A DNA stretch of 64,000 bases from Escherichia phage EC.P1. The DNA is taken from sequence record PQ657772.1; one strand, 5' to 3'. Made by a program: the position numbers and the translations under genes. This document shows, in pieces, positions 20,160 through 21,630 of this stretch. The number at the start of each line of letters is the position of its first letter. Position 1 is the first letter of the stretch. The notes beneath the pieces are model-generated. The model did not search any database, was not told where the DNA came from, and saw only the letters and a program-made list of their open reading frames with translations.

Positions 20160-20175
20160 GATAAATAATATCATA
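20160..20175 (+). promoter_or_regulatory. late promoter-like motif (distal copy)
   Basis: GATAAATAATATCATA, near-identical to motifs upstream of capsid and lysozyme genes. Confidence 0.4.
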
Positions 20176-20222
20176 GAGATCAGGGAATATTGCCTTAAAT
20201 TTAAATGTGGTTTATATTTTTT

Positions 20223-20233
20223 GATAAATAATA
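20223..20233 (+). promoter_or_regulatory. late promoter-like motif (proximal copy)
   Basis: GATAAATAATA ~44 nt upstream of ATG 20277. Confidence 0.45.
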
Positions 20234-20276
20234 TTAAGCAGGGTGTTCCTGCACAAAATTTGACAAGGAGATTTTT

Positions 20277-20876
20277 ATGAGTCTTAATTCTTTTAACCGT
20301 AACTATGGTATGTCTGCTACTGCTCGTGAATACTGGGGTGGTAACAATGGTTTCGTAACCATCGTTGTTGATCTACCAGCAGATGTTGAAGTTGGTACTA
20401 CCGCTGTTACTTCTGACGGTTCCGAAATTCAAGATGAAGCACTACAAACTGCAATCAGTAATGCTCAATACAACCAATTCATGATTACCCAACTACTACA
20501 ACAACGTGCAGTTCTAGTTACTACTTCCGTACTAGCTCTAGACACCGCTGTTGTTATCCCTGCTGACTTTAAAACCGTTGGTGGTAACGTAATCGCGTTT
20601 GGTACTAGTGGTGCTGATGTTACAGGTGGTGCTGGTTCTGTTGCTCTAACCTTCATCTGTGAACGTCAAGACGTATTTGACAAACAAGAAGTTCGCCCAG
20701 GTGCTGCTTACTCTGTTCCAGTTGATCCAACTGTTGAACTAGCTAAAGCTATTGCACAAGCTAAATTCTTCCGTACCAAATCTTATGTTGCTCTAGGTAC
20801 TGATGGTGTTGGTGATGCTGCTGCCGCTGACGCTGTTGCAATTAAAGTTCGTGCTGCTCTACCAGTACAACTATAA
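20277..20876 (+). CDS. abundant protein of unknown function, paralog A (199 aa)
   Basis: AAGGAG RBS; biased codon use (GGT/GCT/CGT/ACT); paralogous to next gene (QQRAVLVTTS vs QQRAVIIATS). Confidence 0.6.
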   Translation: MSLNSFNRNYGMSATAREYWGGNNGFVTIVVDLPADVEVGTTAVTSDGSEIQDEALQTAISNAQYNQFMITQLLQQRAVLVTTSVLALDTAVVIPADFKTVGGNVIAFGTSGADVTGGAGSVALTFICERQDVFDKQEVRPGAAYSVPVDPTVELAKAIAQAKFFRTKSYVALGTDGVGDAAAADAVAIKVRAALPVQL

Positions 20877-20891
20877 TAGGGGGACTACAAT

Positions 20892-21581
20892 ATGTCTAAT
20901 ACTAATACTTCTTTTGAACGTATCAATGGTTATTCCTTTGATAAAATTCTAGGTTACTTCTGTGGCAAAAACGCCCTAGCATCTATCGCAATTAGTAAAA
21001 TTGGTAATGTTAACGTGCGTGTTACTGGTGCAGTTGGTTCTTTCGCTGGTCTACAACGTTTCCTAAACACTGACGTAGCTGATGAAATCGTTGCATATCT
21101 AAATGAAAAAGGTATCATCCGTATCGATGGTACTCCATTTGAAGCAGCAACTCTAGAAGCTGATTATAACGCTGCTTACGCTGCACAAACTAACGTTAAA
21201 CGTATCGTTGATGTTGTTCAACAACGTGCAGTTATCATCGCTACTTCCGAAATCGCTGGCAACGACGTTGAGCCATTTGCAGTTACTGGTTTTACCAACG
21301 CTGCTGACGGTATCCTAAGTGTTGGGTCTGTTGATATCGCTAGTGCTTCAGTAGTTACTTTCCTCGTTGAACGTGCTAACGTATTTGATAAAGATATTCA
21401 ATCTTTCCAAGGCGTTCCAAGTACTGAGATCGAAGAAGGCCGTCTACTAATTGATGACCTAACCGCAGTTCCACTACTCGCTAAAGATGGTGTTACTGAA
21501 GTTGTTCTACGTTCCCAAGCTGCTGATGCTGCTGGTGACTTCGGTATCAAACTATTCAAATTCATCCCAGCGATGGTTTAA
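20892..21581 (+). CDS. abundant protein of unknown function, paralog B (229 aa)
   Basis: GGGGGA RBS; paralog of preceding gene; followed by strong terminator. Confidence 0.6.
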   Translation: MSNTNTSFERINGYSFDKILGYFCGKNALASIAISKIGNVNVRVTGAVGSFAGLQRFLNTDVADEIVAYLNEKGIIRIDGTPFEAATLEADYNAAYAAQTNVKRIVDVVQQRAVIIATSEIAGNDVEPFAVTGFTNAADGILSVGSVDIASASVVTFLVERANVFDKDIQSFQGVPSTEIEEGRLLIDDLTAVPLLAKDGVTEVVLRSQAADAAGDFGIKLFKFIPAMV

Positions 21582-21589
21582 TAAATTAA

Positions 21590-21630
21590 AGATAAAAGAA
21601 AAGGAGAGCTTTTGCTCTCCTTTTTTTATT
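21590..21630. terminator. bidirectional intrinsic terminator
   Basis: AAGGAGAGC-TTTT-GCTCTCCTT hairpin flanked by A-run and T-run between convergent genes. Confidence 0.6.

Follow-up and report, generated by a model that had tools for sequence, protein, structure and literature searches.

We analyzed a window of 64,000 nt of Escherichia phage EC.P1 (sequence record PQ657772.1), which is a jumbo myophage of the RaK2/121Q-like coliphages, and concentrated on two adjacent plus-strand genes that lie, together with their flanking signals, within positions 20,160-21,630. The two genes encode paralogous proteins of 199 and 229 aa, which are almost certainly products of a strong late expression unit and abundant in the virion. 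They very probably do not form the tail tube. The place that we favor for them, with a confidence just short of even, is an outer layer of cement or decoration proteins on the capsid, and the more specific proposal that they represent a new fold family of capsid cement proteins is tentative. Taken as a whole, the account that leads from the operon through the virion proteins to the capsid layer appears to us evenly poised between right and wrong. Both the genes and the abundance of their products in the particle have been described in publications from 2013 onward. What is added here is the evidence against the tail tube, the capsid-layer hypothesis and the conserved architecture of the expression unit, and the discovery is a modest one.

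Signals for high expression around the gene pair

Between about 5.8 kb and 40.06 kb of the window, the two genes are the only plus-strand open reading frames (ORFs), and they interrupt a minus-strand block of about 34 kb. Gene 1 (20277-20876, plus strand) encodes a protein of 199 aa and 20.8 kDa, and gene 2 (20892-21581, plus strand) one of 229 aa and 24.3 kDa, both with an isoelectric point (pI) of 4.5. An earlier interpretation made from the DNA letters, to which we refer as the sequence-only reading, had described two plus-strand genes of these lengths in a minus-strand region, with strongly biased codon use and strong ribosome-binding sites (RBSs), preceded by two tandem late promoter motifs and followed by a near-perfect bidirectional terminator. 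Each of these elements was recovered in our analysis.

Two exact copies of the late-promoter-like motif GATAAATAATAT, about 63 nt apart, precede gene 1 on the plus strand. The distal copy (20160-20171, with the core ATAAATA at 20161-20167) lies 116 nt before the first ATG, and the proximal copy (20223-20234, core at 20224-20230) lies 53 nt before it. When one mismatch was allowed, the window contained four matches to GATAAATAATAT as compared to 1.25 expected, and only one out of 100 shuffled sequences reached four. The ATAAATA core itself occurs 22 times in the window, and 15 of these copies fall within the 14% of the window that is intergenic. Most copies are located 21-71 nt upstream of an ORF on the same strand, including the major capsid, scaffold and baseplate genes. 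The motif of the major capsid gene (TATAAATAATATCAT, at 32856 on the minus strand) is nearly identical to the distal motif of the pair, and its distance from the ATG is 51 nt, as compared to the 53 nt between the proximal motif and gene 1.

The arrangement is conserved. Two copies of the ATAAATA core, one at about -116 to -127 and one at about -53 to -60, are present in the window and in G17, phAPEC6, RaK2, CBB, Munch, fHe-Yen9-04 and XaC1, and the proximal motif (TTGATAAATAAC/T..TTAAG) is kept in every relative that was aligned. In Vibrio phage 2.275.O, one motif precedes each of two of its genes. The whole layout of motifs, genes and terminator is retained in eight other phages belonging to several genera. 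The paper on CBB predicted that ATAAATA serves this group of phages as late promoter, and remarked on its likeness to the T4 element TATAAATA; a phage-encoded sigma factor is mentioned in the paper on fEgEco12. An element of this T4 type is found upstream of the pair, with its core present twice. As in the gp55-dependent late units of T4, late and structural genes, that of the major capsid protein among them, have the core in front of them at a short and constant distance. Unlike in T4, a G, C or A frequently takes the place of the initial T, and there are two copies in tandem.

The RBS of gene 1 (AAGGAG, 20265-20270, plus strand) is separated from the start codon by 6 nt and is kept in relatives. 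That of gene 2 (AGGGGGA, 20878-20884, plus strand) has a 7-nt spacer and is contained within the 15-nt gap between the two genes. Since this gap holds no promoter motif, the genes are probably co-transcribed. Starting 7 nt after the proximal motif, the minimum free energy fold of the 5' untranslated region contains a hairpin, GCAGG-GTGTT-CCTGC (20238-20252, plus strand). In an alignment of nine sequences, 91% of the cells of this 5-bp stem are paired, as compared to 31-46% when the 3' partners are slid along, which provides modest support. RaK2 shows a double compensatory change (GTAAG/CTTAC), and the copies of the Vibrio phage have different stems that are still self-complementary. If transcription starts a few bases past the motif, as it does at T4 late promoters, the hairpin would coincide with the 5' end of the mRNA. 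This presumed 5'-terminal stem-loop of the late mRNA might stabilize the transcript.

Downstream of gene 2, positions 21596-21627 form an intrinsic terminator on both strands. It is composed of an A-run, the stem GGAGAGC, a TTTT loop, the complementary GCTCTCC and a run of seven T, with 14 pairs in total, such that each strand presents a GC-rich stem-loop followed by a U-run. Its folding energy (-20.3 kcal/mol, z = -5.1) was not equaled by any of 200 shuffled sequences. The terminator is common to the gene pair and to a convergent minus-strand gene (21626-22351), with an overlap between the T-run and the stop codon of that gene. It is found with covarying stems in G17, phAPEC6, RaK2, CBB, Munch, fHe-Yen9-04, XaC1 and the Vibrio phage, and the records of G17 and Munch annotate the same element as a terminator. 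Elsewhere in the window, a GC-rich hairpin of 8 bp (22892-22920), just downstream of the sliding-clamp gene, is also terminator-like on both strands. On the minus strand it comes directly after an ATAAATA at 22920, ahead of the zinc-ribbon and GroES genes, and thus forms a compact junction of promoter and hairpin.

The two genes have the most biased codon use of the window. Their effective numbers of codons (Nc) are 29.1 and 29.7, the lowest among the 54 ORFs (median 40), and CTA accounts for 87-92% of their leucine codons as compared to a median of 20%. The major capsid gene (Nc 31.9, CTA 81%) is no more biased than the pair. CTA is the rarest leucine codon of E. coli. It provides 60-92% of the leucine codons in the most biased genes of the window, among which are the pair (20277-21581), 31630-32805, 22344-22646 and 34730-35575. 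The window holds no tRNA genes and the tRNAs listed in the fEgEco12 paper are only those for Ser, Met, Asn and Thr, which leaves the CTA bias of the highly expressed genes unexplained.

Two paralogous virion proteins

The paralogy of the two proteins, which the sequence-only reading had proposed, is supported by BLASTP (E 1e-6, 34% identity over the central 93 aa) and by a profile-profile comparison of the two families with hhalign, in which 27 of the 36 A1 sequences were kept (effective number of sequences, Neff, ~2.3). The latter aligned them end to end with a probability of 99.96% and an E-value of 3.4e-39. Protein 2 has, in comparison with protein 1, an additional helical segment of about 30 residues. 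Over the whole profile, both match PHROG 9326 ('virion structural protein'), with E-values of 2.6e-82 and 3.4e-81. The statement of the sequence-only reading that no family is recognizable thus does not hold as far as membership is concerned, and it stands in the sense that the function of this family is undefined. Both proteins are mildly hydrophobic as well as acidic, with a high content of Ala, Val, Gly and Thr. The Pfam scan of both returned only sub-threshold noise (OxRdtase_C, GLMA_C).

Orthologs of both proteins were recovered by phmmer and tblastn. The counterparts of gene 1 are fEgEco12 g364, RaK2 ORF107w, phAPEC6 gp210, CBB_271, 121Q gp618 and GAP32 265; those of gene 2 are fEgEco12 g363, RaK2 ORF106w, phAPEC6 gp211, CBB_270, GAP32 264 and, presumably, 121Q gp617. 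Protein identity is 100% with fEgEco12 g364/g363, about 80% with 121Q and G17, about 73-75% with RaK2 and about 60% with CBB and GAP32. The pair shares orthology, position, promoter motifs and terminator with the RaK2 gp106/gp107 family, and nothing material differs. A profile search of 1.84 billion representative proteins returned only 42 clusters, and the distant ones that were scanned gave the same PHROG throughout and no informative domain. As judged from these searches, the family is a narrow one that does not extend beyond this lineage of phages. Its outlying members differ from the window in having three plus-strand genes rather than two. In Vibrio phage 2.275.O these lie at 1135-3206 between rnh and GroES, and tblastn finds three matching places in the record. 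In a metagenomic contig (9068-11390) with a homolog of 39% identity, synteny is kept and the context gave no further functional clue. Distant members of about 295 aa (P0147, P0149, P0151) have about 80 additional residues, with much Gly, Thr and Val, inserted in front of the last (C-terminal) strand.

Evidence that these are major components of the particle comes from homologs in RaK2, CBB and phAPEC6, the virions of which were studied by tandem mass spectrometry, rather than from this exact phage. In the phAPEC6 virion, mass spectrometry (MS) covered 69.8% of gp210 and 69.9% of gp211, which rank fourth and third among 62 proteins, as compared to 74.9% for the major capsid protein and 68% for the sheath. 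In CBB, coverage was 91% for CBB_270 and 56% for CBB_271, with 68% for the major capsid protein. RaK2 ORF106 and ORF107 are among the few proteins labeled in the figure of purified virions separated by sodium dodecyl sulfate polyacrylamide gel electrophoresis. They run there at their predicted mass, which indicates that they are not cleaved. In addition, the record of 121Q annotates gp618 as a structural protein. The sequence-only reading had expected a very abundant virion component from the layout of the unit and had suggested virion proteomics as a check; the data published for the relatives bear this expectation out.

We modeled the structure of both proteins with AlphaFold2 (gene 1: predicted local distance difference test, pLDDT, 80.6 and predicted template modeling score, pTM, 0.76; gene 2: pLDDT 81.3, pTM 0.78). 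The predicted fold is alpha+beta, with a ferredoxin-like core and a beta-alpha-beta arrangement with long helices, one of which spans 26 residues. When model 2 was compared to the PDB with Foldseek, nothing was found at E < 0.06, and the output was noise from ribosomal proteins (TM ~0.2). The comparison to BFVD returned only family members and uncharacterized proteins (Atu_ph07, uncultured phages), and profile searches of PDB sequences with the pair gave no match. Residues 1-21 of protein 1 are predicted to be disordered and yet their sequence is invariant across the family. Each protein has such an N-terminal arm of about 20 residues, with pLDDT < 50, and the invariant positions are R8, N9, Y10, G11, E18, W20, G21, G22, N24 and G25. 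Such a pattern is typical of a docking arm, and we infer that the arm may act as one.

Place of the pair in the virion

Cryo-electron microscopy (cryo-EM) of phAPEC6 (10 A) and of 121Q revealed that the T=28 shell carries a further, second layer of protein, which was left unassigned. The layer is made of an elongated protein, with about one copy per major capsid protein and ridges that meet across axes of local two-fold symmetry. In the 121Q map, these appear as ridges that zig-zag over the local two-folds, 'possibly due to an independent decoration protein'. With 391 aa and 42 kDa (about 37 kDa once processed), the major capsid protein is a minimal gp23 homolog, and because of this small size it has little mass to spare for an extra ridge domain. 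We favor the pair as the source of the outer layer because its proxies of abundance are similar to those of the major capsid protein, because both proteins are acidic and uncleaved, because the flexible N-terminal arm is invariant, and because distant members carry an insertion, which suggests a solvent-exposed face.

The pair resembles lambda gpD, T4 Soc and phage L Dec, which are likewise small late proteins of the virion, very abundant and produced in amounts comparable to the major capsid protein. The N-terminus of gpD is ordered only on the capsid, and the arm of the pair is conserved but flexible, as that of gpD is. The pair differs from the known cement proteins in that it has no sequence or fold similarity to the solved ones, consists of two paralogs rather than one protein and binds the capsid only putatively. 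The sequence-only reading had considered an Ig-like decoration fold. No Pfam Ig family and no Ig structural match was found, and the predicted topology is beta-alpha-beta; the Ig-like part of that suggestion is thus not supported, and a non-Ig capsid decoration role stays as the best candidate.

The way in which the unit may operate can be outlined as follows. The two tandem T4-like late-promoter motifs (ATAAATA) would drive a bicistronic mRNA, which probably begins at the small 5' stem-loop and would end at the bidirectional terminator common with the convergent gene. The two strong RBSs and the most biased codon use of the window would give this mRNA the signals of a highly translated unit. 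The resulting paralogs of 21 and 24 kDa would enter the virion uncleaved and, judging from the relatives, at very high copy number. There they could build the 'second layer' on the outside of the T=28 capsid, with their N-terminal arms docking, and may pair as a heterodimer across the local two-folds.

We consider the tail tube very improbable as the site of one or both proteins. It was proposed for RaK2 ORF106/107 in 2013 because no tube gene was recognizable at that time, on the grounds of a size of 21-24 kDa, of abundance and of a predicted beta-rich secondary structure, and the sequence-only reading listed it again as an option. In size and abundance the pair is indeed similar to the proteins with the tube fold of T4 gp19, Hcp and lambda gpV, but it has no sequence match to them, its predicted fold is of the alpha+beta ferredoxin-like type, and syntenic tube genes are found elsewhere. 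Directly downstream of the sheath gene gp277c of phAPEC6, the products gp275c, gp274c and gp273c match tail-tube PHROGs (E 5e-86 to 8e-227). In particular, gp275c and gp274c match phrog_4542 and gp273c matches phrog_13438 ('tail tube protein'), and gp275c and gp273c also have a weak match to the general tube family phrog_45. The order of the sheath and tube-like genes resembles that of T4 gp18-gp19, the classical synteny of sheath and tube. The tube identity of gp273c-275c rests on PHROG profiles and synteny, because single-sequence searches of these proteins against the PDB found nothing. The pair, in contrast, matches no tube family in Pfam or PHROGs, and neither the Foldseek search of the PDB with model 2 nor the predicted fold itself pointed to a tube fold, which is a beta-sandwich with a flanking helix. 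In phAPEC6, gp210/211 are about 81 kb away from the sheath gene, and the pair lies between replication and packaging genes, far from the tail module. What still speaks for the pair is the behavior of the genes that adjoin the sheath. These three consecutive paralogs of tail-tube families (phAPEC6 43644-46307, minus strand) show 9-30% MS coverage and an Nc of about 38 (37.5-38.6), which is low coverage and weak codon bias for a protein of 150 copies; the sheath has 68% and an Nc of 30.6, and the phAPEC6 pair an Nc of 30-31. In the cryo-EM paper on phiKp24, the tube is gp119 and the pair is not treated.

Other locations have been weighed as well. The pair could consist of internal head proteins that build the 'inner body', a rod of 91 x 18 nm, which we regard as unlikely. 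The inner body of phiKZ contains abundant paralogous proteins, and the pair is abundant, too. The rod has been seen by bubblegrams in 121Q and phAPEC6, and it exists there without identified proteins. The pair shows no processing by the prohead protease or removal of a targeting peptide, as indicated by the full mass in RaK2 and the 91% coverage of CBB_270; it is acidic and mildly hydrophobic rather than DNA-binding-like, and the additional domain inserted in some distant homologs is taken to be more typical of surface proteins. Moreover, the phAPEC6 authors favored RCC1-like 'DNA condensation' proteins for this role. Unlikely to a similar degree is a decoration of the tail, in which the pair would provide the 'brown' decoration protein of the collar and the distal tail or would anchor the hair-like fibers of the sheath. 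The tail map of phAPEC6 does contain decoration proteins and fiber bases without an assigned protein, but these are low-copy features arranged in rings at two or three levels, whereas the coverage and codon bias of the pair match those of the major capsid protein and of the sheath. RaK2 and GAP32 are reported to be without whiskers and yet keep the pair, for which reason a whisker protein was rejected as well. Finally, it is hardly credible that the two are abundant non-structural late proteins that co-purify with virions. Single-stranded DNA-binding protein, sliding clamp, RecA-like protein and thymidylate synthase are indeed found in these virion proteomes, but with 7-26% coverage as compared to about 70% for the pair. 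The pair was found in each of three phages that had been purified independently (RaK2, CBB, phAPEC6), it is labeled as bands on the RaK2 gel, and gp618 is annotated as structural in 121Q.

Returning to the outer capsid layer, several points count against assigning it to the pair. Sequence coverage is a rough proxy for copy number, and the late timing of the two genes is deduced from the promoter motif. The AlphaFold2 models were built on shallow alignments (36 and 44 sequences), and the predicted fold has no match among solved decoration proteins. In phAPEC6, other small proteins of high coverage could equally form the layer, namely gp347 (14 kDa, 75%), gp306c (17 kDa, 66%) and gp253 (41 kDa, 66%), and the authors of that study considered it possible that a domain of the major capsid protein makes up the ridge. 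The low MS coverage and weak codon bias of the tube-like genes leave their assignment to the tube not airtight. Our literature searches retrieved no paper that gives the pair a location in the virion.

Genomic surroundings and significance

The 4-kb stretch around the gene pair is 99.7% identical to fEgEco12 at the nucleotide level and 99.3-99.7% identical to seven further jumbo coliphages. Identity decreases to about 83% with 121Q, G17 and PBECO4-type Asteriusviruses, and synteny is still recognizable as far as RaK2, CBB, GAP32, Munch, fHe-Yen9-04 and others. The plus-strand position between rnh on one side and the convergent structural gene and GroES on the other is common to the window, fEgEco12, G17, RaK2, phAPEC6, CBB, Munch, fHe-Yen9-04, XaC1, Vibrio phage 2.275.O and the metagenomic contig.

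The neighbors, as identified from the ORF list and family matches, are all encoded on the minus strand. On one side of the pair lie an RNase H-like 5'-3' exonuclease (19079-20137), a 161-aa ORF and the large terminase. On the other side, the convergent 'virion structural protein' gene (21626-22351) is followed by the genes for GroES, a zinc-ribbon protein, the sliding clamp and DNA polymerase, and the gp23-like major capsid gene is located at 31630-32805. An ORF of 887 aa (49926-52589), which was at first suspected to encode the sheath, is a baseplate hub/lysozyme gene. Between the prohead protease and portal genes, a 281-aa gene (34730-35575, minus strand, phrog_15696) corresponds by position and size to phAPEC6 gp228c. 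It has a codon bias similar to that of the major capsid gene (Nc 32, CTA 75%), yet only 16.7% coverage in the phAPEC6 virion, a pattern that fits a highly expressed scaffold or core protein or a candidate for the inner body. Upstream of the terminase, a 228-aa ORF (17862-18548, minus strand; listed with a further ORF at 18592-19077, minus strand) is labeled in some relatives as 'DNA packaging protein/Gp17' or included in the large terminase, and other relatives call it hypothetical. Its sole PHROG match is the family-specific 27915, in which function is undefined, and from this comparison the terminase annotation looks unsupported.

The large terminase gene itself (16246-17890, minus strand) is split into two overlapping ORFs, 17546-17890 and 16246-17583. 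One extra C at 17626 falls inside the Walker A codons, which read CAG ATG C GGA AAA ACA in the window and CAG ATG GGT AAA ACT in G17. The +1 frame after this C restores RQM-GKTT and runs on into the second ORF. CGG, the frame-0 codon at the site, is rare in E. coli. In the next 33 codons, all ten differences between the window and Turkey5 (about 91% identical, with the same site) are synonymous in the +1 frame and non-synonymous in frame 0. The comparison with G17 after the site gives 15 synonymous and no non-synonymous differences in the +1 frame. Eight phage records, deposited under different names, are identical over the site; seven of them annotate two coding sequences and the eighth is unannotated. 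The stretch, CAGAUGCGGAAAAAC, lies in an essential gene and is, on strong comparative evidence, a candidate for programmed frameshifting (+1), or for the bypass of a single base, at AUG-CGG-A; our literature search found no report of a +1 frameshift in this gene.

The RaK2/121Q-like jumbo phages matter as candidates in phage therapy and as models for the stabilization of very large capsids. The expression unit described here is a compact and conserved example of how a gene pair reaches the expression level of the major capsid protein, combining late promoters in tandem with a 5' hairpin, strong codon bias and a bidirectional terminator used from both sides. Our analysis disfavors the published proposal of a tail tube and provides cryo-EM groups with two concrete models to fit. 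If true, the assignment of the pair to the capsid cement would explain how a minimal gp23-like protein of 37 kDa holds a genome of 350 kb.

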